Source: a virus
Length of the DNA: 64,000 nucleotides
Reading direction: 5' to 3' (one strand)
UHGV virus genome: UHGV-1351279
Part shown: piece by piece, positions 19,101-61,999 of the stretch
How the letters are laid out: each line of letters starts with the position of its first letter
How positions within the stretch are numbered: the stretch's first letter is position 1
Translations under genes and position numbers: made by a program
Notes under the pieces: generated by a model
Told to the model about the DNA's origin: nothing
Database searches by the model: none
Seen by the model: only the letters and a program-made list of their open reading frames with translations

Positions 19101-21592
19101 ACAAGTTAAGAGAGTTGAGAGGTGATGAAGAAACAATAACTCCTACACAACCTACACCTCCTCCAGCACCAAAAGAACGTTATGGAGAAGAATTTCAAGT
19201 AGACCAATTTGTATTTTCTTATAATCCTGAGACAGGTAAGTACTATCAGCATTTTAAATCTAAAAAAGGAGAAGTAAAAGAACTTACTAATGAAAAGCAA
19301 CAAAACAAAACTTTTTTAAAGTACATAGAAAAACACCCTGAGCATGCTGAAATAGTAACTTATGAAAATACAGGTAATAAATATGTTTATGATAAGAAAA
19401 GAGATAAAGTAATATCTTTATCTACAGCAGACACCATAGTTCAACCTGATATTGTTGATAAAGTAAAAAACCATGAAAAATACGCAAGGGAAGAAAAGAT
19501 AGAAGGTTTAAAGAAATACATAAAACAATATTTAAAAGATTTCAAGGATATGTCTTTTGCAAGACTTTATCAATTATTGATTAATCAAGGTACTATAACT
19601 CATGAAGATGCACATGATTTTTCTGAAGCTTTTAATCAAGCTCAACAAGAAATAAATGAAGAAAAAAATACAAGAGTCTATAAATTAAAAAGCCAACTCC
19701 CCAGTGATGTATTAGAGTATTTAAAAAATACAATAAGTGAGTACTATGATAAAAATGATAGCAAAGATGTAAACACTATCTACAGAGATTTTATGAAATC
19801 CCGTGAAGGTAAGAATGGAGGTTTTATATTTGATGTACATGGTTTGGGTAGTTTTAATATACATAATGATATATTTACAGAGCTTTTTAAAGAAATAAAA
19901 AAAGAAAAAGAGCTTGAAAAAGAAGCTAAAAAACCCCCTCAATATGAACACTCATTTTCTTACAAAGGTATAACAATACCTACTAAATTTCAATTATCAG
20001 AAGAGCAAGAACAGGCTCTTATAACTCTTATAGAAAATATTACAAGTGGAGATACAGAACCTATAACTTTAAGTGGCTATGCTGGTACTGGCAAAACTTC
20101 TGTGATAGGATATTTGGAAGATTATTTAAAAAGGAAAAGAGGTTATAAATTTCTTTATGGCGCACCTACACATGCTGCTACACTATATTTAGGTTATAAC
20201 ACTAAGAAAATGCCTTTTACAATTGCTTCTTCTGTTGTAAAAAGAATAGATGATTTTGGTAATGTAACTTACACAACATCTTCAAAAGTTGACCAAGCAT
20301 TATCAGACTACGACCAGAATATCTTTGTAGTAGATGAAGTTTCTCTAATGGATTCAACCACTATGGATAATTTCCTTTCTGTAATGGATAGAAAAGGTGT
20401 AAAAGTTATATTCATGGGGGATAAAATGCAATTACCTGAAGTAGCATCTAAAGGAAAAATAAACCCTGAAACAAAAAATTCTATAAAAGATGTTTCTAAG
20501 GCTTTTACTGATTTTAAATTAATACAATTATCTCAAGTACAAAGAACAAAAGATAACTCAATTTTGAGGGTTCTAACAGAGATTAGGAATAATCCTGATG
20601 GTGTATTACCTGTTGTAGATAATACAGAGACTCTACAGTTTTTTAATAAAGATGATAACACTAAAGGTTTTTACAAAGGGTTTAGAACAGCTTATGAAGC
20701 AGACCCTGAAGAAGCTATTTATATTACTTATACCAATGAAGATGTAAAGAACTTCAATAAATCTTTTAGAAAAGCTTTTTATGGTGAAGATGTAGATGGC
20801 TTAGTTGAAGGTGAATCTGTAATAGGATACTCTGGTTACAACAATAAAAAGATTAAGTCAAATGACTTAGCAAACAGTATAAAATACACTGTAGATGATA
20901 TTAGTTATGATGGTTCTGAAGTAAAAATAACATTAAAATCTAATGCTATACAAAAATTAGCTGATTTGCATTCACCAAATAGAGAGAATGATAAAACTGT
21001 ACAAACTACTTATTTACAGATGTCCAGAACAGACTCTTTAGATATGAAAAATCTTACAGATAAAGATTTTTTAAAGAATAATAGTAAACTATCTGAAATA
21101 TTTAGAGATGTCTATGATTTGAAGAAGATGGCTTTAGGAACAAACAGATGGAAAGATTTTAGTGAGACACTTGCTAAGATTACAGGGGGACTTGCTAAAT
21201 TAGAGATTGGAGATGATTATTTCTACAATCCATATACAAATATGATGGAAAAAGAAAGCTCTGTAAATTGGTCTAATCCTCAAATGGCTAATCTAAAAAA
21301 GAATTATAAAGAGCTTTTTATGAGTAAGAGTATTGACTATGGTTATGGTATAACTATACATAAAGCACAAGGAGCTACTTATAAGAATGTATTCTTTAAT
21401 TCTACATCAACGGAATTTGCTAAAACAGAAATCCATGAAAATGGAATGCAAATAAGTACAGAAGGTAACTCTCTTAACTATGTAGCTATGTCAAGAGCAA
21501 GTGAGAAACTTTTTGTTCTTCACTCTAATAATATAAAAAGATTAAACAATGATGACTCTATAGAGTTGTCAAAAAATTGCAGTGTATTCTAA
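16196..21592 (+). CDS. multidomain giant protein (about 1798 aa): N-terminal Rossmann-like (SLOG/LOG-DprA-like) glycine-loop modules plus a C-terminal Dda/RecD-like SF1B helicase
   Basis: The ATG at 16196 overlaps the upstream stop; the ORF track's start at 16190 is a TTG. N-terminal modules: HSGGAIGADTVWGQIG ... TGGTGYAVNMAILNNKPVYVYN (about nt 17000-17430) and KIFVFGDNSIRQGTGGQAQ (about nt 17690-17960). C-terminal helicase motifs: Walker A SGYAGTGKTS, Walker B VDEVSLMD, GDKMQLPE, and GYGITIHKAQGATY. Confidence 0.7.
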   Translation: MSTCKVEFKGFNIDSSSLDNYLNQFTIDGKQKIDGAKNTISYLLSNAKDNKLGVLKLALNSNKAYIKDLANMMLNTNRKFYAEVEINNNLKGFSKYNANDNKIYINVDAISQRFSESAEEYLYERIVHDFIQGFANRELKKAYEDANRDSPYMKNIINLFKEYSKSVDLKEYNVFKDSVNKEPLLDPRSERSLIREGYAEETYRAITNPAEFLSYGLSNSEFRNTLRKQNLWQKFVSLLKDLLGISQDNNDLEYLYKNLDSYLKQDDPYTLHSGGAIGADTVWGQIGKQFGISEENQRHYKTADMPNGNTQITEQDYREGRKEAAKAANRMFGYDKTEVNMGLLIRNWSQVKYSEAVYAVGRLVPAGENAFPDNKKEDTRIAKNPTVTGGTGYAVNMAILNNKPVYVYNQYDNPTYPKGWYKYDSNINDYVPTETPTLTRHFAGIGTRNINEDGEKAIQDTYEKTFNKKQQTGSQSSTDSNIKVEQQNRYSVQDVRNNPDKIFVFGDNSIRQGTGGQAQIRNEPNAVGIMTKKFPRNTPDAFLYDSEYAENIKRINEDIENLKQKVKGKTVVFPTDGIGTNLADIAHTAPRTMEYLINRLREEFGLKDSDPFIKSMLNKLNEARNGFGQKMLIDGEIYSYNVDKLKAYKHTFVGSGINAKQNATEVTDPNLIKKISDKYFETDNNNNNESNTSDKVDDILNEFEFLKTNDPEQSKEVEILEPFGVFPKNTGFLIVHTPSAKGNTVVRIKTKDGKYYQYEIVKVGAGESVSVFKFDKEGDRYVKKSLELNEKNSFIKSFVIKFVGISNEQANREDIKSIFTKALAFLTNKSKNKEGYRELLNNEFVKSDLLHIHNVNLQDTIAQINSLKADDKVEVDRINYLLDYLTNDLNNNDKIWYFGRYAENDLFGLLVNEEKLTKLSSEDALLKYEELKQLLSRKFKELVYDYNGDVKKWLFSLLDEKELDGDLLNKLRELRGDEETITPTQPTPPPAPKERYGEEFQVDQFVFSYNPETGKYYQHFKSKKGEVKELTNEKQQNKTFLKYIEKHPEHAEIVTYENTGNKYVYDKKRDKVISLSTADTIVQPDIVDKVKNHEKYAREEKIEGLKKYIKQYLKDFKDMSFARLYQLLINQGTITHEDAHDFSEAFNQAQQEINEEKNTRVYKLKSQLPSDVLEYLKNTISEYYDKNDSKDVNTIYRDFMKSREGKNGGFIFDVHGLGSFNIHNDIFTELFKEIKKEKELEKEAKKPPQYEHSFSYKGITIPTKFQLSEEQEQALITLIENITSGDTEPITLSGYAGTGKTSVIGYLEDYLKRKRGYKFLYGAPTHAATLYLGYNTKKMPFTIASSVVKRIDDFGNVTYTTSSKVDQALSDYDQNIFVVDEVSLMDSTTMDNFLSVMDRKGVKVIFMGDKMQLPEVASKGKINPETKNSIKDVSKAFTDFKLIQLSQVQRTKDNSILRVLTEIRNNPDGVLPVVDNTETLQFFNKDDNTKGFYKGFRTAYEADPEEAIYITYTNEDVKNFNKSFRKAFYGEDVDGLVEGESVIGYSGYNNKKIKSNDLANSIKYTVDDISYDGSEVKITLKSNAIQKLADLHSPNRENDKTVQTTYLQMSRTDSLDMKNLTDKDFLKNNSKLSEIFRDVYDLKKMALGTNRWKDFSETLAKITGGLAKLEIGDDYFYNPYTNMMEKESSVNWSNPQMANLKKNYKELFMSKSIDYGYGITIHKAQGATYKNVFFNSTSTEFAKTEIHENGMQISTEGNSLNYVAMSRASEKLFVLHSNNIKRLNNDDSIELSKNCSVF
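19960..21592 (+). other. SF1B (Dda/RecD/Pif1-like) helicase domain inside the 1798-aa protein
   Basis: About 45-50% identical by eye to the free-standing helicase at 29675-31246, from YKGITIPTKFQLSEEQ through LNYVAMSRASEKLFVL. Confidence 0.7.
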
Positions 21593-21603
21593 AATAAAAT
21601 AAT

Positions 21604-24600
21604 ATGTCTTGTAAAAATACAGTCTTAAACAGTAATAGTAGAAATGTAGTGATGAAAGGTCTTTATGAAAAAGACCTTATCACTGCCTATAAGAATGTTG
21701 GTAATACAACAATAATACAAGTATCTAACATTAAGGATTTCAATAAAAGGAATCAACTTTTAATAGATAAAATACAGGAATTACAACCTCAATTTTTATC
21801 TTCTTTTGGAAGTATGTATAACACCACTCCAACAGAATTATTCTTTGATAAAGTAAATGGTAGTCAAGAACAATTTGCTATAAAGAATTATATGTTTGAA
21901 AGGCTATCTAACTTTAAAATGGTAGATTTTAATAAGCTACAAGAAACTTTAGATAGCTTAGGTAAAATAGCTGTACAAGTATCAAATGGTAATATAGAAA
22001 TTAGAAACCATAAAATACACGGTTTTACTAAAGAAGAAGTAGATGCTATAGTAAAAAAGTATAATACACTTTCTTCTGAAAAACAACAATACATAAAAGA
22101 TGAAATTAGAAATAGTAGAAATATTGTAGATAAAGTAGCTTCAAAACTTTATGATGCTTATGAAGATAGACTTAACCTAATTACTGATATTGATTCAAAT
22201 TCAATGAGAATAGGTAATAAAAACTCTAATAATATTATTAAAGTAAAATCTAAGGAAGTTGAATCTAATAGAGAGCTTCAAGAAATAAAAGATGAAGTAG
22301 CTAATAATAAAGCTAAGGAACTTACAAGAAAAAACACTGAGGATAGCAATAAAAGGAGTAATGATTATAATACTGATGGTGATATATTGCCTTCAAATGA
22401 TAATTGGGACTCAAACTCTGACCCTAATATTACACCTCCTGTAACAGATAATTATACAGAATATACAAATTACTTAGATGCACTACTAAAAAGTGTACAG
22501 AAAAAGAAAGGTGAGTTAATAAAAGAACTCAAAAATCCAAAAAACAAGAATAAAACTAAGACTATTGATGACCTAAATAAGCTAATAACTGAAGAGGGTA
22601 AATTACAAGAGTACTATAATAATGCTATATCTGGTGAAAATGAGAAAAATGTAGAGACATTATTTAATGAATTAGATGATTTGTCTCATAAACTTGATGT
22701 AATAGATAGTGGTAGCATAAAGAATCTTGGAGATAGGGTTGATTTCCTTTTTGGATTTATTACAGGTACAAAATATGGAAGCAATGAAAATGTTGATTAT
22801 GCAATAAGTGAGAATCCTGAACTTAGGTCTAAGGTACTTTCTCTAATGCATAAATATAATAGTAAGCTCAATGAAATATCTAATAAAATCATTGAAGAAG
22901 ATGTTACTTATCAACATAATGTACTTAATAATATTGCATTTAAAAGAGCTGATGGTAAAATAGACAAAGATAAGGTAAATGATTTATTTAAAGTAAAAGA
23001 TGATATAAACTTTTTTGAGAAAGCCCTTTTAGGGGTATCTCAAGCAAGTACTAAAGAATCTATTACTCCTCAAATATTAAAGTCATACCTTGAAAAAAAT
23101 ATGTCTCATAGGACATCTGAAGCTATTGCTTATAAGGATAGATTATTAGCTGCTATTGAGAAATTAGAAGCAAAAGGTATTACTGATTTTAGCTTTATAT
23201 TTGAGAAATTTTTATCAGGAGCAAGAACAGGTAATATCATTAGTAAATATACTTCTGAGTATAGGAGAAAGCTTTATAAATACTTTAATATGGAAGTTGA
23301 GGGTAATGACTATGCTTCTTATTATAGTAAGAAAATACAATGGCTAAAGGCTAATGCTGATGTTATAGACTTTAGAAAAATAAAGGCTTTTAAAGACCTT
23401 TATGGTAAGAACTATCCTAATGAATTTATCTTCTCTGACCAGGAAATGGAAGAATATGAAAATAATCTTAGAAAACAACTTGGTAAAGTGTATGATAAAG
23501 AGATAGACAAAGTAAATAGTTGGATAGAAAATTATGAGCTTACTAAGCAAAATTATGAATCTAAATATGAAGCAGAGAGAAATAACCCTTTTGTATTTCT
23601 AAGGTCTTATTTTGGAGATTCTCCAACTACAGCAGCTGCATTTAATGGTACAGGAGGTATATCAAGTATATTTCCTAACCTTAATGATATTGTATTTGTA
23701 CCAAGAAAAACCTTTACTGAGGGCTATGACTTTAATGGAGAAGAAATAACCTCTGATACAGGCTATTATAATAAAGACTTTGATAGAATTGAACAGTCTG
23801 ATGAAATGTTTGAGTATTGGTCTGTATTAGAAGATATATATTCTCAATACATAAATCCTACCTATGACATATCAGGAATGAGCTTTGCTAAGATACAAAA
23901 GGAGTTTCTCGAAAAAGTAAGTGATGCAAAAGGTGCTTCTAAAGCAGGTACTCTAATATCTAAAGGTATACAAGCTTATAGAGAGTATTTCTATGAAGTA
24001 GGTGTAGGTAATAAGAAAGATAAAGGTATTGTAGAGAACTATTCTGATAAGACAAAACAAGAAATAAAGGCTCTATCATCAGCTCTAAAAGCTAAATCTG
24101 TTGATGAGCTTAAATCTATGGCAAAAGATTTAGGTCTTACTATACCTAATAACATAACACCAGAGCAATTAGTTCATGAGATTGCAAGTGAAATGACTTT
24201 AAGGAATTATTCTTCTGATATTAATAAGATAACAGGGGCTTTAATTGATATGGTAGCTTTACAAAAAGCCAGAGAAGATACTTTACCTATAGCTAATATC
24301 TTACTTGAGAAACATAAGAAAACTGTAGGAGAAAGTGAAAGGGAGAGAAAAAATAGTATTGAGAAATTAGAACACTATATCAATAAAGTAATTAAGAATG
24401 AGCATGAGCATGCAAGAGGTACAGAACAACTAATAGGTAAAGAGATTAAAACACCTGGTTGGATAGAGATGTTACTTGATAAATTAGGTGTTATAGGTTG
24501 GCTTAAAAATAAAGTAGAAAAGAATAGGTTCTTTTACCTTTATAGTGATTCAGAAAGACAATTATTAAAAGAACTCCAGAGTGCAAGAGAAAGAGGTCAT

Positions 24601-26616
24601 AACTCTAATATTAGTGATAGTTTCTATCAAGATGGTATGAGATATGAACTTATAGTGGATGAGCATGGGGGTACATATTTTGCAAGCTATAAAGATAAGC
24701 ACACAGGAGAAGATAAAATAATTGATATAACTCCTGAGCAATATGAAGAAGCTTATCAAAAGAATATAGAAAGTAAGATACAAAGTTTGGGTCTTGACTT
24801 AAATAGTGCTGGTATTATTCAAGGAATACTAAAAACTATCATTTTTAAAGGATTAGGACTTAACCCTATTGGAGGTATCAGAAACAGGATGGAAGGTAAA
24901 AATACCAACCTTATAATGGATATGACAGGGTATTACTGGACTAAAGGTAATATTAGACATGCTCATAATTTCTTAGCCTTTGCTAATATGTTGCATATTT
25001 TACCTGATAGGATTTCTCCTGAACACATGGGTAAATACAAACAACTAAAAATCTTTAGGTCTTTAGTAGAGAAGATGAGGATTGTTCAAGATAGAAAAAA
25101 CCCTTTAGAGAGAAATATTGAGCAGTCTAAGTTCTCTATGGAGAAATATACTAATGTTTTTTCTTGGGCTGTAGATAACCCTGAGTTTAAGAACCAGGGT
25201 TCTGTGGTTCTTGCTATACTAATGGATACTAAGATAGAGAACAATAAAGGGGAATTAGTACCTATATTTGATGGTTCTAAATTTACTGTATTTGAAGAAA
25301 CTAAAGATGGTTCCTTAAGATTAAAAGAAGAGTTTAGGTCCGAAGAGAATATAAGGAATTGGGAAAATATGGAGGTAGGATTTAATGAAGAGGATAATAA
25401 CCAATTCTTTCTAACAAGAAATAAAATGAAGACAGCCATATCAAGAACACAAGGTAACTATGATGATATGGATACTATTTGGGCTTCAAGAACTATATGG
25501 GGTCAAGTTCTAATGATGTTTAAAAAATGGATGCCAGAACACTTTATGCAGAGATTTGCATCAGGACAGAATTTTGACTTATTTACAGGAAAGAAACAAA
25601 TGATGGGTAGATACAGAGCTATGTGGAATAATAATCCTGCATTGGCTGTAACAGGACTTTCCTCTATATTAGTAGGATTAGGTTTAGGAGCTGGAGCTTT
25701 AACTGTAGGAGGTATTACAGGAGTTGTAGCTTTTAAGTTTATACATAATATGATGGGAGGAAATAAAGGTATCTTAGAAGAAGCTAATAATATAGGAGGA
25801 TTAGTAGCTTTTACTAAGTCAATACTTATTAGTACTCTTAATTACCCTTTAGAGCTTATCAATCTAAAGACAGGTATTCCAACAAAATATGATGGATATT
25901 CTAAATTAAATCTTACTGAAGAGGAAATAGGTACTTTAAGGTCTTTAGCTAAAGAAATAGCTGTAAAACTAACCTGGTTAAGTATAATGTTACTTGCTAA
26001 ATCTCTTACTTGGGATGATGATGATGATGATGACTCAGATAAAAGGAAGTTACATAATTTCTTAGATAATGAGCTTAATACAACTATTAATACATTACAA
26101 TCCTGGTCAGACCCAGGTGCTTTATATGATGATGCATCAAGAAGCTCTTTTCTTTTATATTGTGATAATGTAACAAAACTATTAAAGAGTATTATGTTAC
26201 TCAATGGAGGGGATGCTTCAAAATATGCTTTAAAGGTATCTCCTGTACCATCTTTCTTTACACACATGGTATCTAAAGATGGTGATTTACTAATGCCTTG
26301 GCAAAATGATTATGAATATGATAAAGGTAAAACTTATTGGGATGGATTTATAAAAGAAATAAAAGGTAGAGGACATGAAAAATGGTCTAAGAAAGAATAC
26401 AATAAAATAAGAAAAGAGAAAAAAGCTGAAATGTTAGAACAAGGTATGAGTGAAAAAGAGATTAAAGAAGCTCTTGGTACTAAACCAAAAGGAATGTCCT
26501 ATGTAGATGCTTTAGATTATATGGAAAATGGAGGATTACCTCCACAAGAACCTAAGAAAAAAGGTAGACCTAAAGGTAGTAAAAACAAGAAAAAAGAGGA
26601 TTCAGCTCAAAAGTAA
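21604..26616 (+). CDS. large hypothetical protein (1670 aa) with a glycine-zipper transmembrane segment; putative ejection or tape-measure-like internal protein
   Basis: Hydrophobic GxxxG-rich segment AVTGLSSILVGLGLGAGALTVGGITGVVAF at about nt 25636-25740. Also has a poly-Asp run, coiled-coil regions and a K-rich C-terminus. It is the last gene of the + operon and is followed by a terminator. Confidence 0.6.
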   Translation: MSCKNTVLNSNSRNVVMKGLYEKDLITAYKNVGNTTIIQVSNIKDFNKRNQLLIDKIQELQPQFLSSFGSMYNTTPTELFFDKVNGSQEQFAIKNYMFERLSNFKMVDFNKLQETLDSLGKIAVQVSNGNIEIRNHKIHGFTKEEVDAIVKKYNTLSSEKQQYIKDEIRNSRNIVDKVASKLYDAYEDRLNLITDIDSNSMRIGNKNSNNIIKVKSKEVESNRELQEIKDEVANNKAKELTRKNTEDSNKRSNDYNTDGDILPSNDNWDSNSDPNITPPVTDNYTEYTNYLDALLKSVQKKKGELIKELKNPKNKNKTKTIDDLNKLITEEGKLQEYYNNAISGENEKNVETLFNELDDLSHKLDVIDSGSIKNLGDRVDFLFGFITGTKYGSNENVDYAISENPELRSKVLSLMHKYNSKLNEISNKIIEEDVTYQHNVLNNIAFKRADGKIDKDKVNDLFKVKDDINFFEKALLGVSQASTKESITPQILKSYLEKNMSHRTSEAIAYKDRLLAAIEKLEAKGITDFSFIFEKFLSGARTGNIISKYTSEYRRKLYKYFNMEVEGNDYASYYSKKIQWLKANADVIDFRKIKAFKDLYGKNYPNEFIFSDQEMEEYENNLRKQLGKVYDKEIDKVNSWIENYELTKQNYESKYEAERNNPFVFLRSYFGDSPTTAAAFNGTGGISSIFPNLNDIVFVPRKTFTEGYDFNGEEITSDTGYYNKDFDRIEQSDEMFEYWSVLEDIYSQYINPTYDISGMSFAKIQKEFLEKVSDAKGASKAGTLISKGIQAYREYFYEVGVGNKKDKGIVENYSDKTKQEIKALSSALKAKSVDELKSMAKDLGLTIPNNITPEQLVHEIASEMTLRNYSSDINKITGALIDMVALQKAREDTLPIANILLEKHKKTVGESERERKNSIEKLEHYINKVIKNEHEHARGTEQLIGKEIKTPGWIEMLLDKLGVIGWLKNKVEKNRFFYLYSDSERQLLKELQSARERGHNSNISDSFYQDGMRYELIVDEHGGTYFASYKDKHTGEDKIIDITPEQYEEAYQKNIESKIQSLGLDLNSAGIIQGILKTIIFKGLGLNPIGGIRNRMEGKNTNLIMDMTGYYWTKGNIRHAHNFLAFANMLHILPDRISPEHMGKYKQLKIFRSLVEKMRIVQDRKNPLERNIEQSKFSMEKYTNVFSWAVDNPEFKNQGSVVLAILMDTKIENNKGELVPIFDGSKFTVFEETKDGSLRLKEEFRSEENIRNWENMEVGFNEEDNNQFFLTRNKMKTAISRTQGNYDDMDTIWASRTIWGQVLMMFKKWMPEHFMQRFASGQNFDLFTGKKQMMGRYRAMWNNNPALAVTGLSSILVGLGLGAGALTVGGITGVVAFKFIHNMMGGNKGILEEANNIGGLVAFTKSILISTLNYPLELINLKTGIPTKYDGYSKLNLTEEEIGTLRSLAKEIAVKLTWLSIMLLAKSLTWDDDDDDDSDKRKLHNFLDNELNTTINTLQSWSDPGALYDDASRSSFLLYCDNVTKLLKSIMLLNGGDASKYALKVSPVPSFFTHMVSKDGDLLMPWQNDYEYDKGKTYWDGFIKEIKGRGHEKWSKKEYNKIRKEKKAEMLEQGMSEKEIKEALGTKPKGMSYVDALDYMENGGLPPQEPKKKGRPKGSKNKKKEDSAQK
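26014..26034 (+). repeat. (GAT)6GAC trinucleotide microsatellite encoding poly-Asp (WDDDDDDDSD)
   Basis: Read directly from the sequence. Confidence 0.9.
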
Positions 26617-55626: not shown

Positions 55627-55906
55627 CTTTTATAGCTTTAGATGCTTTTTCAAAAGTTTTATAGATTTCATTAGTGTTTCTATACCAATGACTTTTAGAG
55701 GTGTTTGGTTCTTTTGTTAAATCAAGCCAAACAGTTGTGTAAGACTTTTCTTTAATAGTTTCACCATCTAATTCATACCTCTTTTCCTCGTTAATTACAA
55801 ATAATTTACCTTTTATTACTTTTTTATATGAAGCTTTACTATCTTTTTCAAAAAACTCTTCTATAGTGTAAAAATATTTACCTAAATCTCTCTTTGTTAT
55901 TCTCAT
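55613..55906 (-). CDS. hypothetical protein
   Basis: 97-aa ORF. Confidence 0.4.
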   Translation of the reverse strand: MRITKRDLGKYFYTIEEFFEKDSKASYKKVIKGKLFVINEEKRYELDGETIKEKSYTTVWLDLTKEPNTSKSHWYRNTNEIYKTFEKASKAIKDEKE

Positions 55907-55907
55907 T

Positions 55908-56129
55908 TTACTCTATTGTTTTACAATTATTTTCAATACTTTCTTTTATAACTTTGGTTATTTCTTTTAAATCTATTACATTACTAATGTAACATTTCTC
56001 TAATTTGAAGAGTTTTCCAAAAAATGGGTCATAAAGATAATTACAACCATTTATATTTATTGAAAAAGGCTCTTTAGAATGTTTTATCTTACTAAATAAA
56101 TCTTTTAAATCATCTTCAGTTGGTTTCAT
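55908..56129 (-). CDS. hypothetical small protein
   Basis: 73-aa ORF. Confidence 0.4.
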   Translation of the reverse strand: MKPTEDDLKDLFSKIKHSKEPFSININGCNYLYDPFFGKLFKLEKCYISNVIDLKEITKVIKESIENNCKTIE

Positions 56130-56536
56130 TCTAATCCAAGTATTTTAATCTGTTCGTCTGTTAGTGGTTCACAATAATCCCAATCATCACCTTCAGAATC
56201 ATAAAAATTTCCTTTTTCATCTACACTACTAAGTATACACAAATAAAAATAATCTTTATCGTATTTATGTTTAAATCTACACCATTTACCTATGTATTTA
56301 GTGTAATCTCTTGCATATATTTGATTAAAACCTTTCAATGTATACTCTGTAAAAGATAAGAGTTTTGAAGCTACTCCTTTTGAATAATGTACTTCATCTC
56401 CATTTTTAAATTTGACATCACAAACTAATTTTGAATCTTCTTCTTTTTCCCAATCAAAAGAGTACATAAAAATTACTACTCCCCAACCAAATCTTATGTC
56501 AAAGACTTTGTCACCTTTTTCAAATATTGTTTTCAT
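56126..56536 (-). CDS. hypothetical protein, paralog family A
   Basis: MKTIFEKGDKVFD...EYTLKGFNQ...PLTDEQIKILGLE. Confidence 0.5.
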   Translation of the reverse strand: MKTIFEKGDKVFDIRFGWGVVIFMYSFDWEKEEDSKLVCDVKFKNGDEVHYSKGVASKLLSFTEYTLKGFNQIYARDYTKYIGKWCRFKHKYDKDYFYLCILSSVDEKGNFYDSEGDDWDYCEPLTDEQIKILGLE

Positions 56537-56952
56537 TATAAATTAAGTATTTTAATTTGTTCTTCAGTTAATGGTTTAAAATTCTTGTATGATTCATCTT
56601 CACAACTTTTAAAAGGATATATACTATTATTTTCATAGTTATAGAGTTTGCCAATTCTATTTGTATTTTCAAAGTCTTCTATATCATCATAAAATACACC
56701 CCAAGTACCAAAGTATTCACTATAATCAATAATAGGTTCTTGAGTAAAACCTTCTAATGTATATTCTTTAGTTGCTAAAGTTGGTTTATCAGTAACTTGT
56801 TCACATATAGTTCCATTTAAATGATACCAAATTTCTTCTTTTGGTTTTTTATCAAATAGTACAGAAATATATTTTGTCTCTATCTTTTTTATTGTTCCCC
56901 AACCAAAGAAGAAGTCAAATACTCTTTGGTTTACTTTAAATTTTGTTCTCAT
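56536..56952 (-). CDS. hypothetical protein, paralog family A (in tandem with 56126-56536)
   Basis: MRTKFKVNQRVFD...EYTLEGFTQE...PLTEEQIKILNL. Confidence 0.5.
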   Translation of the reverse strand: MRTKFKVNQRVFDFFFGWGTIKKIETKYISVLFDKKPKEEIWYHLNGTICEQVTDKPTLATKEYTLEGFTQEPIIDYSEYFGTWGVFYDDIEDFENTNRIGKLYNYENNSIYPFKSCEDESYKNFKPLTEEQIKILNL

Positions 56953-56955
56953 TTT

Positions 56956-57180
56956 TTACCCTTTTAGACTATCATAAATATTGTTTATTTCTTCACATAT
57001 CTCAGAAATATCATACATTAGTTCTTGTGTAGATTTATCTGATGTAAGTTCTTTAAAATCTTTTCTTTTAAAGTGTTCTTTTCCCTTATCATTAATAGTT
57101 TTAAACTCTTGTAAAGCTTCTTTTACTTTTATAGAAGCTTGTTTTAAGTCTTCTAAGTTTTTTATTATTTCTTCTTTCAT
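56956..57180 (-). CDS. hypothetical small protein
   Basis: 74-aa ORF. Confidence 0.4.
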   Translation of the reverse strand: MKEEIIKNLEDLKQASIKVKEALQEFKTINDKGKEHFKRKDFKELTSDKSTQELMYDISEICEEINNIYDSLKG

Positions 57181-57431
57181 ATACTATCAATTATATTTTT
57201 TACTAATTTATCTGTGTTCTCTGAGAGTTTCTTGGATATTATCTTTAGTATATCTAATGACAAATCTTCATCTACACAAAGTGTAAAAGACTCTCCTATT
57301 TCATTGAAGAAAGATACTTTACCTTCATACCTATCTTTTTGTTTTTCTTCTTCTTTTTCAAAAGAGTAACCTTTTTTAAATTCTAATGAAAACTCTTTTA
57401 TTCTAAAATTCTTATTCATAATTAATGACAT
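57177..57431 (-). CDS. hypothetical small protein
   Basis: 84-aa ORF overlapping the polymerase's 3' end. Confidence 0.4.
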   Translation of the reverse strand: MSLIMNKNFRIKEFSLEFKKGYSFEKEEEKQKDRYEGKVSFFNEIGESFTLCVDEDLSLDILKIISKKLSENTDKLVKNIIDSI

Positions 57432-60400
57432 TCTGCATAATTAACTCCAAAGTCTGCACTTATATCCATTGGTATTGAAAACTTTATTTTATCATTTACT
57501 TTTGAAATACACTCTTTTAGATATTTTAATATACTATCTTTAGAGATATTATTATTAAAATAACATAAGTACTCATCATGTATCTGAAGCATTACTGTAT
57601 TTACTCTTTTTCTTACTTCTTGTAAGTAACAATCAAAAACAAATACAGCAGTACTTTGATTTAGTGATGAAAATATATCTTTAAAATACCTAAGTGAAAT
57701 CCAAAAGTTACTTACAGGATTAAGTATATACATAGTATTTACAGTTTGTAAAAAACTGTTTTGTAATTTTTGACACCTTTTCTTTTCTTTCTTACTATTG
57801 TCTTTAGGTAAAAAATCTACTGTCTTATATACTTTTACTTCCCCTGTTTTGTGTATTACTTTCAATAAGAGGTCTTTCTCTACATCTAACACAGATTTAT
57901 TCATAGTCCAATAACCATCTAATATAGTCTCTGCTTCTTCTTTTGTACAATCTAAGTTTTTAGCTAATGTTGGAGCTCCAACTTTATATACAGAAGAATT
58001 TCCTGTTATAACTACTAAATCATTTTGTTTTGCAATAAAAGTTTTATTTTTATTGTTTACACAAAACACATCTGTATACCTACTAAAATCTTTTTTTAGT
58101 TTTTGACCTGTTATGTTTCTCCTATTTCTTATAAAGACATCAACACAAACATTATTTTTATAAACTTTTCCTTTTGATAATTTGTAAAAGTACCCATTTA
58201 AAGTTAAAGCTAAACAAAAAGCATCTAATATTTTACCCTTATTTTGAGTAAATATCTTTTGACCCTCTTTTTTATGACCATCTCCTTTTAACATGTGTAT
58301 TATGAACTCTTCTCTTATGTCATGTGGTATGTTTATTATAAGGTTAGTGTAATCTATGTCTTTTTTATTTCTTTCAGGTAAATTAAGTCTGTAAAACAAA
58401 CTTCTTATTTCTGATGGTGATAGGTCATAGTAAGTAAGTCCATCTTTTCTTGTATAAGTTCTGTATTTATAATTATTCAATACTTTTTCTAAATCTTCTT
58501 TGTTACTTTTTTGACCTATTTTACATATAACATGTCTTTTTTTACCATTAGAATTAGATGTACCATTTAATTTATCAGACCATTCTACATAACCTTCTGT
58601 TAGAATCCAAGCTAAAAGCCTTATATCTTCAACATTGTAATCTCTGTTTGTGTTTTTATAAGGTGCTGAAACAATTATTTTATCATTTTTGTTTATATCT
58701 TTTGTTTCAACAAAAACGTTTTTATAATATGTTTCCTTGTTTTTTGATGTTATTTTTTTAGAAGAAAACCATTTATGGTTTGGTGTACATTCAAAAGAAA
58801 AATGACTATTATGTAAGCTTATAACTTCTTGTTTTTCAAAATAGGGTATAGAGTCTATTTTTACAACTTCTAATTCATTTAATTCTGTATTATAAGAAAA
58901 AATGCAATCATCTAATTTTAGTTGCTCATATTTTTTCCAACCCTCTGTTGTTAAAATTTCTGTTATATCAGTTGGCAAACAAAAATTTACTATTTTAGCC
59001 TTATTTCTCATAGTTTTTAATTCTAAAAATTCTTTTTTTTCATCTTCATTTTTTTCTTCTTTTTTATCTAATTCTTTATATCTATTAGCTTGTTTTTCAC
59101 TCATTAAACCTGAAAATTTTGCAATTTCAATATGTGCATCATATCCTGGAACTCTTTTTTTATTTACATAATCAGGGTCAAATTTGTACATATAATTATC
59201 TTGAGTTGTTGCTTCAGCTGCTGATAAGTCAGAACCACACAGTATAGTATTTTCTTTAGGAGAAAGAATTAAACCTCTAATCTCTTTACCATAAAAGGTA
59301 TTTGGTTTAGGTAAATTACTAATAGGTTTTCTGTGTAGAAATCTAAAGGTATTTGATAAACCTCCAGCAGTAGCATAAACACAATTATTCTTGTCCATAC
59401 TTTCCATAAAAGACTTAAACACTCCTATCCTATGAGTTATTAAAGAAAGGTCATTAAACAGCTCTATTTCTGGTACTATTTCTATTAATTTTTTTACAGA
59501 ATTACATATTTTACCATTATCATCATAAATCTGTTCTACCTCTTTTTTAGTACCTTTTTTCTTATCTTTTACTGTTTTATAAGTACAAGGTATCCAACCT
59601 AATGAGTAAAACCATTTTTTTACCTGGTCTACACTTCCTGGATTAGGTTCTTCCTCTTCACATATTAAAGTAACTATTCCTTCATAATCTTCAGGTAATT
59701 CTTGTTCTTGTAAAATAGCTAACCACTTTTTACCTGCTTCACTCAAAGAACCATCTTTCTTAGTCATTTTATTGGGTTTAGTTACCTCTTTGTATTTATA
59801 TACTTTAGGCATTATTCCTTTTAAAATTTCTACTTTTTCATTATAGATTGTTTCAAGCTCATCTAAAGATTTGTAAAGTAATTTCGTATCTACTTTTATC
59901 TTTACTTCTTCTTGCTCTCTTAGACAATCCATTTTGAAGTTTAAATAGTTAATGATTCTTTCTTTATCCTCCTGTTTAGAATATAGTTTATGAAGAAAAA
60001 TTATTTGATTGTGAAATAATCTCTGATTAATCTCAACATCTTCACTGCACCTGTGAATATATTCCTCAATAGTTAGATTACTCCAATCAGATATTTTAGG
60101 TTTAGGTACTCCAAATTCTTCTCCAAAGGATTCTAATCCATGAGATTTTCTCCCTATATATAAATACCATGATAATCCCATAGTATCTATAATTTTAAGC
60201 TCCTTTGGCTTTTTCCAACCTAATAATTTTTTTAATACAGGTAAATCAAATCTTAGAATGTTATGCCCAATTAATGTTTCTTGTTTATCTAAAAAGGTGA
60301 TAATATCATTAGGATTCACTAAAGCTCCCTTTTCTAATAAAATACCTTTTTCATAAATTTGATAACAAAAACAATGTAGTTTTGTTACCTCATCTAATAA

Positions 60401-60436
60401 GCCATCACACTCCAAATCAAATATTGTGTAACTCAT
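57422..60436 (-). CDS. family-A DNA polymerase (3'-5' exonuclease plus polymerase domains), interrupted by an intein
   Basis: Exo I IFDLECDG, motif A LCGSDLSAAE, motif B split as RNKAKIVNF / SSVYKVG, and motif C MLQIHDEYL. Length is 1004 aa including the 328-aa insert. Confidence 0.75.
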   Translation of the reverse strand: MSYTIFDLECDGLLDEVTKLHCFCYQIYEKGILLEKGALVNPNDIITFLDKQETLIGHNILRFDLPVLKKLLGWKKPKELKIIDTMGLSWYLYIGRKSHGLESFGEEFGVPKPKISDWSNLTIEEYIHRCSEDVEINQRLFHNQIIFLHKLYSKQEDKERIINYLNFKMDCLREQEEVKIKVDTKLLYKSLDELETIYNEKVEILKGIMPKVYKYKEVTKPNKMTKKDGSLSEAGKKWLAILQEQELPEDYEGIVTLICEEEEPNPGSVDQVKKWFYSLGWIPCTYKTVKDKKKGTKKEVEQIYDDNGKICNSVKKLIEIVPEIELFNDLSLITHRIGVFKSFMESMDKNNCVYATAGGLSNTFRFLHRKPISNLPKPNTFYGKEIRGLILSPKENTILCGSDLSAAEATTQDNYMYKFDPDYVNKKRVPGYDAHIEIAKFSGLMSEKQANRYKELDKKEEKNEDEKKEFLELKTMRNKAKIVNFCLPTDITEILTTEGWKKYEQLKLDDCIFSYNTELNELEVVKIDSIPYFEKQEVISLHNSHFSFECTPNHKWFSSKKITSKNKETYYKNVFVETKDINKNDKIIVSAPYKNTNRDYNVEDIRLLAWILTEGYVEWSDKLNGTSNSNGKKRHVICKIGQKSNKEDLEKVLNNYKYRTYTRKDGLTYYDLSPSEIRSLFYRLNLPERNKKDIDYTNLIINIPHDIREEFIIHMLKGDGHKKEGQKIFTQNKGKILDAFCLALTLNGYFYKLSKGKVYKNNVCVDVFIRNRRNITGQKLKKDFSRYTDVFCVNNKNKTFIAKQNDLVVITGNSSVYKVGAPTLAKNLDCTKEEAETILDGYWTMNKSVLDVEKDLLLKVIHKTGEVKVYKTVDFLPKDNSKKEKKRCQKLQNSFLQTVNTMYILNPVSNFWISLRYFKDIFSSLNQSTAVFVFDCYLQEVRKRVNTVMLQIHDEYLCYFNNNISKDSILKYLKECISKVNDKIKFSIPMDISADFGVNYAECH
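57998..58981 (-). mobile_element. intein (Hint domain) carrying a LAGLIDADG homing-endonuclease domain, inserted in polymerase motif B
   Basis: Begins with Cys486 (CLPTDITEIL). Has TPNHKW (block B), LLAWILTEGYV and FIIHMLKGDGHK (LAGLIDADG pair). Ends ...VVITGN813 with Ser814 at +1. The flanks reconstitute RNKAKIVNF-SSVYKVG, matching RRxAKxxNFGxxYG. Confidence 0.7.
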
Positions 60437-60438
60437 TG

Positions 60439-61020
60439 CTATTCTTTTAAACCTTGTTCAATAATATTCTCCATCATATTTGAGTTTATAGTTCTTGTAC
60501 CATCAGGGTTATATTTAATACACAATCTCAAATCTTTTAGTTTACTCCATTTACCTCTTGCAAATAAGTTTGGGTCTACTAAATAAACAGATTTTGATAT
60601 TGGTATTAATATATTCTCTTTCTTTAGCTTAGATATAGCAACATCAATTGTTTCTATTTTTAATCCTGTGTCCTTAGACATAAGAATTTTTGTGTCTTTT
60701 ACTGCTATAAACTTATTATCATACCCCATTCTAAGAACTATTGAATATAGTACCAAAGAAACATTTTTCTCTAATGAGAATATTCTTTTTATATCACTTA
60801 AATATAATTTTAGAAAGTCAGGCTCTGTTGATACAATTGCTGTTTTAAAGTTTTTTACTTTTAAAACTTCTCCTGTATCATTATTGATTTCAATGGTTTC
60901 TTCTTCATAAGTTACCTTTTTCACTTTTTCTTGCTTAGGTTTATTCAACCTATTTACTTTTGTTACTTTCATTTCTAATAGCTTTTCTAATTCCCTGCAA
61001 AGGTATGTAATATTTTCCAC
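60439..61020 (-). CDS. hypothetical protein, candidate DNA-binding regulator or initiator next to the half-site array
   Basis: 193-aa ORF immediately downstream of the operator-like array. No firm motif. Confidence 0.35.
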   Translation of the reverse strand: MENITYLCRELEKLLEMKVTKVNRLNKPKQEKVKKVTYEEETIEINNDTGEVLKVKNFKTAIVSTEPDFLKLYLSDIKRIFSLEKNVSLVLYSIVLRMGYDNKFIAVKDTKILMSKDTGLKIETIDVAISKLKKENILIPISKSVYLVDPNLFARGKWSKLKDLRLCIKYNPDGTRTINSNMMENIIEQGLKE

Positions 61021-61061
61021 TTATGATATTTCTTTAGTACAGTTTAACAAATCTCTTCAAG

Positions 61062-61131
61062 CTTATGGTAGCCATAAGTGAGACTTATGGTAATCATAAG
61101 TTCAACTTATCATAACCATAAGTTAGACTTA
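61062..61131. promoter_or_regulatory. array of about 7 alternating inverted 7-mer half-sites (CTTATGG / CCATAAG) at roughly 10-11-bp spacing; candidate operator or origin
   Basis: CTTATGGtagCCATAAGtgagaCTTATGGtaatCATAAGTtcaACTTATcataaCCATAAGTtagACTTAg, read directly from the sequence. Confidence 0.55.
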
Positions 61132-61268
61132 GCTTCAAATGGAATACAAAAGCCTGATTATCATTGGGTTATAAGAGAGGTAAAGTGTAAATTCCTTCTT
61201 TTATTATTTTATTGTATAGTGTAAAGTCCATATATTTTATACAAAAAATAAAAAGGAAAGTGAGGTAA

Positions 61269-61310
61269 TTAAAGGGCAGAATTAACTACCCTTTAATATA
61301 CCAATGTTAT
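61269..61310 (-). terminator. hairpin (ttaaaggg / ccctttaa, 12-nt loop) followed on the - strand by T-rich tract ttacctcactttcctttttatttttt
   Basis: Lies downstream of the gene ending at 61384. It contains the 11-mer GAAAGTGAGGT that is also found at the 42.14-kb terminator. Confidence 0.4.
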
Positions 61311-61383
61311 GGCAACTTAGAAACTCTACTCCAAAGATACATTCACACATATCAGTTTCTTTAAGTCATAACACAGTGGAATC

Positions 61384-61632
61384 TTATACTTGCTCATCAT
61401 TAAGTGTCAAGTTATTGACTAAAGAGATAATCCTGAAATCCTTCTCTGAACTATTACAAATAAAGTAACTTTCAGAAAGTAATACATTATTCTCTCCTAA
61501 ATCATAAATGACATATAACTTATGATAATCAAGTGAATCCTTACCCTTTCTTTTGATGAACTCTAATATTGCATCTCTCGTGGGTAACCCCTTAAATTCT
61601 AAGCCTTGCTTTATCTCTAAAATTGTCTTCAT
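61384..61632 (-). CDS. hypothetical small protein
   Basis: 82-aa ORF. Confidence 0.4.
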   Translation of the reverse strand: MKTILEIKQGLEFKGLPTRDAILEFIKRKGKDSLDYHKLYVIYDLGENNVLLSESYFICNSSEKDFRIISLVNNLTLNDEQV

Positions 61633-61638
61633 AATATT

Positions 61639-61800
61639 CTATTTTGAATGTGATGAAAATGATATATAAGCAAAAAATACAAAAAGTACTGTACTTATAA
61701 CACCTGCTACTTCATTAGAAAATATACAAACAGAAGTAAAAGTTATTATTATCCAAATGATAAATAATATAAATTCTAAGTTTTTGTCACTATCACTCAT
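61639..61800 (-). CDS. unannotated small membrane protein (53 aa) MSDSDKNLEFILFIIWIIITFTSVCIFSNEVAGVISTVLFVFFAYISFSSHSK
   Basis: Hand-translated. It has a TAATATG junction with the upstream gene. Confidence 0.3.
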   Translation of the reverse strand: MSDSDKNLEFILFIIWIIITFTSVCIFSNEVAGVISTVLFVFFAYISFSSHSK

Positions 61801-61801
61801 A

Positions 61802-61999
61802 TTAAAACCATTTAAATAAAATAATTGAACCTGTTTGCTCTTCTATCTTTCTATTAATAGAAATAAAAGACTCTTCAGAGATGTTTTTTCTCTGCTCTTT
61901 TGCTTTGTTAGTGTAATATTCACTTCTTTCTTTATTACCTAACTTTCCCATTACTACTGCATTATTTAAATACATGTAGTATTTTGTTTCTTCTTTCAT
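61802..61999 (-). CDS. hypothetical small protein
   Basis: 65-aa ORF. Confidence 0.4.
   Translation of the reverse strand: MKEETKYYMYLNNAVVMGKLGNKERSEYYTNKAKEQRKNISEESFISINRKIEEQTGSIILFKWF

Follow-up and report, generated by a model that had tools for sequence, protein, structure and literature searches.

The classical endonuclease inteins PI-SceI (VMA1), PI-PfuI, TliVMA/PhoVMA, and PI-TkoII join a Hint splicing domain to a LAGLIDADG endonuclease. They come from archaeal or yeast hosts, are 360 to 540 amino acids (aa) long, carry an extra DNA-recognition region, and have a His-Asn end and an Asp-type block F. In actinophages, class 1 inteins with LAGLIDADG endonucleases, some with a penultimate Gly, have been surveyed (PMC5050341; bioRxiv 10.1101/2025.01.02.630785). 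Class 3 inteins, for which a phage origin was proposed (PMC2807308, PMC5222942, PMC4031507), start with a non-nucleophilic residue, and the canonical ones (Bethlehem DnaB, Msm and Mch DnaB-1, and Dra Snf2) keep the penultimate His and reside in helicase or ATPase P-loops. A further class 3 intein, AceL NrdHF (PDB 6zgq), has Ala1, Cys124 as its sole first nucleophile, and Met at position B:12 and is naturally split (PMC7891396); it contains no endonuclease domain, and its host gene is related to ribonucleotide reductase. As for family A DNA polymerases (PolA), Novikova et al. only mention that inteins can occur in bacterial DNA polymerase I (PMC4760082), and we found no prior description of an intein in PolA motif B in the literature searched. 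Here, we analyzed a stretch of 64,000 nucleotides (nt) of viral DNA, the UHGV virus genome UHGV-1351279 (hereafter called the window), in which an earlier note made from the sequence alone had placed a LAGLIDADG-containing intein within motif B of a PolA. Our comparisons and a structural model indicate that this 328-aa insert, located in the O-helix of the polymerase, is likely a genuine intein that still functions and has a double-motif LAGLIDADG endonuclease nested within it.

Results

An in-frame insert splits the O-helix of a family A DNA polymerase

The polymerase gene forms a single open reading frame (ORF), which translation showed to be continuous and stop-free over 1004 aa, as the earlier note had stated. 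Translation also verified an insert of 328 aa from Cys486 to Asn813, Ser814 at the +1 position, and a length of 676 aa after removal of the insert. The precursor has a 3'-5' exonuclease at its N terminus, then a polymerase domain that holds the intein; it matches PHROG 17 'DNA polymerase' with E = 1.1e-79 and contains the polymerase motifs DLSAAE, R-x3-K-x3-F-x3-Y, and QIHDE. An identical protein (P0001) is encoded on a 97,240-bp metagenome scaffold of the ENA. The parts of the gene, in window positions, are as follows.

57422..60436, minus strand: precursor ORF, 1004 aa, family A DNA polymerase, no internal stop
58982..60436, minus strand: N-extein, residues 1-485, ending in the first half of motif B (O-helix)
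57998..58981, minus strand: intein, 328 aa (protein residues 486-813), in-frame insert in motif B, Cys1 to Thr326-Gly327-Asn328
57422..57997, minus strand: C-extein, residues 814-1004 and stop codon, with the second half of motif B at its start

The N-extein ends with R477-N-K-A-K481-I-V-N-F485, and the C-extein begins with Ser+1-S-V-Y489-K (Y489 in the numbering of the spliced protein) and includes the motif C sequence QIHDE. Motif B is thus split right after NF, as had been proposed, but its C-terminal half reads S-S-V-Y-K instead of the ...YG that had been put forward. The spliced sequence MRNKAKIVNFSSVYKVGAPTLAKNL aligns across the junction with motif B of the Klenow polymerase, and motif C is aligned as well. 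Based on chain indices and established numbering, we take R477, K481, F485, and Y489 to correspond to R754, K758, F762, and Y766 of the Klenow O-helix. The Phe equivalent to Klenow F762 contacts the incoming nucleotide and governs nucleotide selection, so this alignment and numbering place the insertion point directly after the nucleotide-contacting residue. Since the O-helix is broken in the precursor, the polymerase could work only after protein splicing. Consistent with an interrupted domain, the PF00476 (DNA_pol_A) model scored 29.9 bits with the insert in place, under its cut-off of 34.3 bits, and 52.1 bits after in silico removal, with a best-matching stretch (residues 474-561) that crosses the junction. 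Base composition gave no contrast, the GC content being ∼25% in the insert and its surroundings alike.

The predicted fold is that of an intein with a nested endonuclease

The insert runs from CLPTDITEILTTEGW to NDLVVITGN, preceded by RNKAKIVNF and followed by SSVYKVG. It contains the TPNHKW block, the LLAWILTEGY(V) helix, and a second LAGLIDADG-like helix, all three of which had been pointed out from the sequence. Its layout is given below, with block positions named according to Tori et al. (PMC2807308).

58664..58981, minus strand: N-terminal splicing (Hint) half, intein residues 1-106, all-beta in the model, with block A (CLPTDITEILT) and block B
58769..58786, minus strand: block B, T66-P-N-H69-K70-W71 (Thr B:7, His B:10, Lys B:11, Trp B:12)
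58157..58663, minus strand: LAGLIDADG endonuclease domain, intein residues ∼107-275, helix-strand pattern in the model
58589..58618, minus strand: LAGLIDADG motif 1, LLAWILTEGY, with the putative catalytic Glu129 at the C terminus of helix 117-129
58271..58306, minus strand: LAGLIDADG motif 2, FIIHMLKGDGHK, with the putative catalytic Asp234 at the C terminus of helix 220-234
57998..58156, minus strand: C-terminal splicing half, intein residues 276-328, blocks F and G
58061..58063, minus strand: codon of Cys307 (block F position 4)
57995..58006, minus strand: end of block G and C-terminal junction, Thr326-Gly327-Asn328 followed by Ser+1

An AlphaFold (AF2) model of the insert, built on eight homologous inserts, reached a mean predicted local distance difference test score (pLDDT) of 91.4 and a predicted template modeling score (pTM) of 0.88. 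In this model, the N- and C-terminal parts are all-beta and the central domain is alpha/beta. The best Foldseek matches in the PDB were TliVMA (E = 5.5e-14), PI-SceI (3.5e-12), and PI-PfuI (2e-11), followed by PhoVMA and PI-TkoII. These classical endonuclease inteins share the Hint plus LAGLIDADG layout of the insert (E = 5.5e-14 to 1.7e-7; template modeling [TM] score relative to the query, 0.56-0.64) at a sequence identity of just 9-16%. The free-standing LAGLIDADG enzyme I-DmoI was also matched (E = 5.6e-6; TM relative to the target, 0.63-0.65). Among the viral models of BFVD, the best matches (TM, 0.73-0.80) were intein-containing proteins, namely portal, terminase, methylase, ribonucleotide reductase, and DNA polymerase proteins.

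Sequence profiles gave the same picture once relatives of the insert were included. A scan of the insert alone against PHROG returned nothing useful, a single-sequence phmmer search of the PDB gave one chance capsid match only, and an eight-sequence profile produced only marginal Hint matches in the PDB. Because these stayed marginal, we built a broader, Hint-only profile from 18 family members (profile A2), which matched 27 chains among the PDB sequences, every one of Hint fold, with a best E value of 1.2e-8. The N-terminal half of the family profile aligned with the AceL NrdHF, Spl DnaX, BIL, RecA, gp41-1, and DnaB inteins. Of eight homologues, three matched the Pfam model LAGLIDADG_3 (best E = 1.3e-6), one matched Hint (E = 0.0036), and one matched Hint_2 (E = 0.072); P0121 bears a precomputed PF14890 annotation. 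The identity of the insert was thus recovered through homologues, the family profile, or structure, where the hidden Markov model (HMM) search that the earlier note had proposed for the window copy failed.

Each LAGLIDADG helix terminates in an acidic residue followed by Gly (LLAWILTE129-G and FIIHMLKGD234-G), and both acidic residues are intact. For motif 1, this acidic-Gly end is kept among the family inteins unless the endonuclease has decayed or been deleted. In alignment A1, D234 does not vary; P0004 is elsewhere listed with Asn in its place.

Splicing residues combine class 1 features with a class 3 signature

Active-site residues were compared in 21 inteins from at least six types of host protein, including polymerases, portal proteins, terminases, methylases, and unannotated genes, and in the 119 full-length matches within the best 150 cluster representatives of a profile search. 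The insert shows the features of a class 1 intein, i.e., a nucleophilic Cys1, a block B Thr-x-x-His, and a terminal Asn followed by Ser+1. Cys1 was found in 21/21 inteins and in 119/119 representatives, and Thr66 (B:7), His69 (B:10), Cys307 (F:4), Gly327 (G:6), and Asn328 (G:7) were each conserved in 21/21 inteins, with Trp71 (B:12) present in 17 and Thr326 (G:5) in 19 of them. Among 136 top representatives, position B:11, here Lys70, was basic (R or K) in 95 by a rough regular-expression count, and some Cys fell within the block F window in 132. The C-terminal TGN occurred in 111/119 representatives, and the +1 residue was always C, S, or T.

The usual penultimate His (G:6) is replaced by Gly327, and the block F His is also absent. 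The earlier note had observed the Gly correctly and had suspected that it impairs splicing. This suspicion was not borne out, since TGN is the norm of the family and Gly-bearing inteins splice well. Indeed, inteins without a penultimate His can splice (PMC7891396, PMC5050341, PMC4031507). AceL NrdHF, which ends in T144-G145-N146 followed by Ser, splices within minutes and is inactivated by the substitution G145H (PMC7891396), and the Bethlehem RDF intein, which also has a penultimate Gly, splices and accumulates more unspliced precursor when it carries G316H (PMC5050341).

From these residues, a splicing pathway can be proposed. Cys1 (C486 of the protein) would undergo an N-S acyl shift aided by Thr66 and His69 of block B, and the N-extein would then be handed to Ser+1 (S814). 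Cys307, located at F:4 where most inteins have Asp, would lie between both junctions. Asn328 would cyclize without the usual His residues, probably with the assistance of Lys70 (B:11), similarly to Arg69 of AceL NrdHF at the same position, which touches the C-terminal scissile carbonyl (PMC7891396). A final O-N shift would release the 676-aa polymerase with the predicted junction ...AKIVNF-SSVYK..., and the freed 328-aa intein would act as a site-specific endonuclease through Glu129 and Asp234.

We also noticed the Trp-Cys-Thr (WCT) triplet of class 3 inteins, which is absent from the earlier note. The triplet is complete at the defining positions W71 (B:12), C307 (F:4), and T326 (G:5) (PMC2807308), which the canonical class 3 inteins share together with the distance of 21 residues that separates C307 from N328. 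In MP-Be DnaB, the F:4 Cys and the terminal Asn are residues 320 and 341 (PMC2807308), and in Msm DnaB-1, they are residues 118 and 139 (PMC5222942). The insert may then splice by a class 3-type or hybrid mechanism in which Cys1 is dispensable or merely auxiliary, an alternative that we hold to be rather unlikely. In its favor, Ser+1 is the typical class 3 residue, and the best PDB match of the profile was the proven class 3 intein AceL NrdHF (E = 1.2e-8), ahead of class 1 inteins and BIL domains. AceL NrdHF shares with the insert His B:10 and a basic B:11, Cys F:4, and the T-G-N end before Ser+1, and it lacks the catalytic His pair (F:13 and G:6) as well (PMC7891396). WCT inteins with Ser or Cys as their first residue have a precedent in 3 of the 37 examined by Tori et al., who left these cases unresolved (PMC2807308). 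Conversely, the conservation of Cys1 in all 21 inteins and all 119 representatives, over many host proteins, argues for selection on a residue that class 3 splicing does not employ as a nucleophile, and none of the top 119 representatives has Ala1. Thr B:7 is invariant here, yet it is not needed in MP-Be DnaB (PMC2807308), and a WCT triplet grafted on a class 1 intein was insufficient for class 3 splicing (PMC7664689). Finally, the structures of the canonical class 3 inteins Msm and Mch DnaB-1 were not among the PDB matches of the family profile at E <= 1.

The clade with Cys1, WCT, and the His-less T-G-N end might be a class 1 ancestor of class 3-type inteins such as AceL NrdHF, with Cys F:4 already serving as a second, relay, or back-up nucleophile. 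We put this forward tentatively, as one of the less probable readings of the residues. If true, a relay from a Cys1 thioester to a Cys307 thioester to a Ser+1 ester would represent a natural intermediate between the two mechanisms.

A closely related phage carries an intein-free allele

The earlier note had also suggested an alignment with intein-free polymerases, and this comparison gave a clear result. P0002, a protein of exactly 676 aa with 92% aa identity, reads KTVNF-ASVYKVG without interruption at the insertion point, so that motif B is contiguous (NF/ASVYKVG, no gap; here and below, a slash marks the junction). The contig that encodes it (L001, 91.9 kb) runs collinear with the window, with ∼96% nt identity over ∼10 kb around the polymerase gene (median, 96.7% over ∼9.9 kb). 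The empty site, AAT TTT/GCT TCT GTA TAT, corresponds to AAT TTT [984 nt] TCT TCT GTA TAT in the window, and the +1 codon is thus GCT (Ala) in the empty allele and TCT (Ser) in the window. In wider context, the L001-type empty site reads ...AAAACAGTAAATTTT/GCTTCTGTATATAAGG..., and that of contig SRR13363917_1718 reads ...GGTAAAGCTAAAACAGTAAATTTT/GCTTCTGTATATAAGGTTGGAGCT... Ten of the 120 best homologues of the polymerase contained a homologous insert within the same motif and 110 had none; Ser occurs naturally at the +1 position in 49 of these 110.

During coinfection, the endonuclease would cut intein-free polymerase alleles at the motif B codons, and repair off the intein-bearing allele would copy the intein together with flanking extein sequence. 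A candidate for such copied sequence adjoins the intein.

58982..59221, minus strand: divergent extein tract of ∼240 nt directly 5' of the intein, putative co-conversion tract

In this tract, identity to L001 dropped to 68-82%, compared with 97-99% directly 3' of the intein and 97-100% over most of the gene. It was one of only two patches so divergent among 287 sliding windows covering 9.9 kb. The other one (61656..61805; 69-79% in 90-nt windows) lies elsewhere in the compared region. The divergent tract fits one-sided co-conversion from an unsampled donor, although not uniquely, and we regard this origin as suggestive.

Identity to the copies in P0003, P0004, and P0006 is higher for the intein (70-74%) than for the exteins (38-59%). 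Against two of these copies, the ratio of nonsynonymous to synonymous substitution rates (dN/dS) was 0.25-0.28 for the intein, 0.18-0.26 for the endonuclease domain, 0.13-0.19 for blocks F-G, and 0.36-0.68 for the exteins, values that are rough because dS is near saturation in AT-rich DNA. As far as these ratios tell, the intein is under purifying selection.

Relatives display stages of decay that are typical of a homing cycle. LAGLIDADG motifs are degenerate in P0033 and P0122, and the endonuclease is partly or wholly deleted in P0121 and in phage phi92. Together with the Asn at position 234 listed for P0004 and the E value of only 0.2 that the window copy obtained with LAGLIDADG_3, such decay would fit a splicing intein that is no longer mobile, its endonuclease being inactive or without a target and the element being kept since precise deletion is rare. 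We consider this improbable. Both catalytic acidic residues are intact, the dN/dS of the endonuclease domain is the lowest or near-lowest in the gene, an intein-free allele with a near-identical target persists in a ∼96%-identical phage, and the divergent tract adjoins the junction. The element is probably an ordinary homing intein and active, as judged from sequence and model.

A decayed copy of the intein was also found in Vibrio phage VnaP (L004, 2474..3544) as a separate ORF that aligns with intein residues 7-326. This copy lacks Cys1, the block B His, and the terminal Asn and has Asp for Cys in block F. The polymerase region of VnaP is fragmented, and the ORF is labeled 'DNA polymerase/3'-5' exonuclease domain V protein'.

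The comparison of occupied and empty alleles also bears on whether the insert is spliced at all. A domesticated or dead intein could persist as a permanent insertion in the fingers subdomain, the 1004-aa protein being the working polymerase. Nothing specific speaks for such an insertion beyond the failure of the window copy in searches with Hint HMMs and its missing penultimate His, and we rate it as very improbable. The insert splits the R-x3-K-x3-F/x3-Y O-helix, and the nearest relative works without it. Moreover, Cys1, the TxxH residues, and the terminal Asn are invariant in the family, with C, S, or T always at +1, whereas the VnaP copy illustrates what becomes of Cys1 and the terminal Asn when this constraint is lost.

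The intein belongs to a large phage family

The element belongs to a large, widespread family of phage inteins, and its kind is already known in many sequenced phages. A word-indexed homologue search with the intein profile found three proteins only; the extent of the family became apparent when 1.84 billion cluster representatives (family sizes being counted in 50%-identity clusters) were searched exhaustively with a profile, which gave 10,583 matches at E <= 1e-3, 3,739 at E <= 1e-10, and 372 at E <= 1e-30. In a rough pattern-based count, ∼103 of the 136 top representatives fell within motif B of PolA, where they occupied at least five registers relative to the motif B Lys.

Between K+5 and K+6: 66 representatives
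Between K+2 and K+3: 18 representatives
Between K+4 and K+5 (the window's own): 13 representatives
Between K+1 and K+2: 3 representatives
Between K+6 and K+7: 3 representatives

Neighboring codons of motif B are thus occupied in different polymerases: the window has NF/S, relatives (P0017, P0042, and P0121) show NFA/S, NYA/C, and NFS/S, and P0100 has KS/CNY. P0121 (NFS/.../SVY) and the window (NF/.../SSVY) would give the same spliced sequence, NFSSVY, from different registers.

A tblastn search of deposited phage genomes returned 117 records; blastn of the polymerase gene against deposited phages gave nothing informative. Among cultured phages, the DNA polymerase I of Escherichia phages nepoznato, nieznany, and ukendt (Phapecoctavirus) contains a full-length homologue of the intein (33% identity, E = 2e-44), and Pseudomonas phages vB_PsyM_KIL1 to -5 (Flaumdravirus) have PolA intein homologues in the same motif B; the cultured-phage PolA inteins range from 28 to 33% identity (E = 2e-44 to 3e-33). 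The nepoznato and KIL1 inteins share with that of the window C1, TxxH-x-W, two LAGLIDADG motifs, Cys F:4, and T-G-N. They differ in having Cys+1 instead of Ser+1, in host polymerases that are distant from the window's, and in register, the nepoznato intein lying one residue downstream (between K+5 and K+6, ...KYG/C...N/CTYG) and the KIL1 intein three residues upstream (between K+1 and K+2, ...GKT/C...N/CNYASVY). In the GenBank polymerase records that we opened, the gene is labeled just 'DNA polymerase' and the intein is unannotated.

Further full-length homologues occur in Gordonia portal proteins, mycobacteriophage DNA methylases, terminases, Staphylococcus Twort-like phages, and Lak megaphages. 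The inteins of the Gordonia phage Woes portal protein (labeled 'contains intein'), mycobacteriophage DNA methylases, and the GordTnk2 TerL belong to the same family (22-25% identity over the full length), with C1, T..H, Cys F:4, (T)-G-N, and S or T at +1 in common. These actinophage inteins differ from the window's in their host proteins and insertion sites and, for the methylase inteins, in having Val rather than Trp at B:12. The phages that carry them are also high in GC, unlike the window phage with its 25% GC.

Family members are not confined to motif B. In phi92-like phages, copies are inserted at a site just after motif A. The phi92 copy itself (L009, ∼1501..2235), a related intein of 245 aa with most of the endonuclease deleted, lies directly after motif A at ...DFDSLEAKIESHY/C...ITGN/CWRY..., a site that is empty in nepoznato, which has the motif B intein instead.

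Several intein-bearing relatives also appear to be interrupted at motif C. The called polymerase ORF ends right after this motif in P0004, P0006, P0007, and L012 (3841..4229), with ends such as '...QYHDK', '...QYHDR', and '...SFHDES' before the stop, and the KIL1 record (L003, 737..3844) joins two pieces. The window gene reads through QIHDEY without interruption. These breaks suggest a second mobile insertion, possibly an intron, at motif C of such relatives.

Phage polymerase genes often bear introns, and together with this apparent additional insertion after motif C, this raises the question of whether the insert of the window could be removed at the RNA level, as an intron of group I or II or as a free-standing homing-endonuclease gene, its open frame being coincidental. 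This is exceedingly unlikely, since all 984 nt are in frame and stop-free and since the N- and C-terminal parts adopt a Hint fold that is continuous with the exteins. We rejected a group I or II intron, as no Rfam family matched 56500..61500 at E <= 1, save for two chance microRNA matches.

Other features of the window

Immediately upstream of the polymerase gene, an ORF of 193 aa (60439..61020, minus strand) matches Pfam RepL, a Firmicute plasmid replication protein, with E = 2e-11 and 44.1 bits against a cut-off of 20.3. The ∼800-bp RepL block (gap 60431..61243) is missing from L001, which has ∼40 nt between the flanking homologous blocks, and its absence constitutes a second presence/absence difference adjoining the intein-bearing gene. 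On the other side, ∼870 bp of small ORFs (55664..56530, minus strand) have no counterpart in L001. The ORFs at 56126..56536 and 56536..56952 (136 and 138 aa) look like tandem paralogues, with FGWG near the N terminus and ends reading ...TEEQIKILxL.

Three consecutive giant ORFs on the plus strand (2670..16196, 16190..21592, and 21604..26616) encode 4508, 1800, and 1670 aa, respectively. Dda-like helicase and DprA-like regions were recognized in the 1800-aa product. Neither the 4508-aa nor the 1670-aa product had a Pfam match at E <= 0.001, and the latter had no PHROG match at E <= 1e-5. The idea of a crAss-like phage, which came from the giant ORFs and the intein-rich crAss literature, was unsupported by the PHROG and Pfam scans.

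Discussion

Our results support the proposal that the PolA of UHGV-1351279 contains an intein with a LAGLIDADG endonuclease, on four lines of evidence: fold matches, the family profile, the presence/absence polymorphism, and the restoration of the DNA_pol_A match by in silico splicing. Several points weigh against a functional, homing intein. The insert alone matched none of the Pfam or NCBIfam Hint and intein HMMs at E <= 1, and it reached only E = 0.2 with LAGLIDADG_3 (12.4 bits, for a cut-off of 22.5); because these curated models are insensitive to a divergent clade, we do not take the miss as evidence against the Hint fold. Both His residues that usually drive Asn cyclization are missing, and given the W/C/T signature of class 3, we only infer that Cys1 is the initiating nucleophile. 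Co-conversion is no more than suggestive because a second, equally divergent patch exists. The search for a donor of the tract among the 120 homologues found none that was close (best, 58 of 78 residues). Near-saturated dS blurs the estimate of selection. To our knowledge, splicing or endonuclease activity has been demonstrated for no PolA member of this intein family, the window protein included.

Nothing that we found is unexpected in kind. What makes the element interesting is its exact place within the O-helix, the clean comparison with an empty site, along with a co-conversion-like tract, and the family-wide combination of Cys1, WCT, and a His-less Gly-Asn end. For annotation, it is better to record the polymerase as an enzyme of 676 aa and an intein of 328 aa. 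The intein is missed by Pfam and NCBIfam and drags DNA_pol_A under its threshold, and cultured phages of E. coli and Pseudomonas have the same unannotated element in their polymerases.

PolA motif B emerges as a hotspot for one intein family in at least five insertion registers, and the family with Cys1, WCT, and Gly-Asn provides many natural examples with which to study the evolution of class 3 splicing. If the insert is a homing intein, as we believe likely, its presence/absence polymorphism between near-identical phages would be a live example of homing. If it splices as proposed, replication of the phage would hinge on protein splicing in the O-helix, at the Phe that selects the nucleotide.

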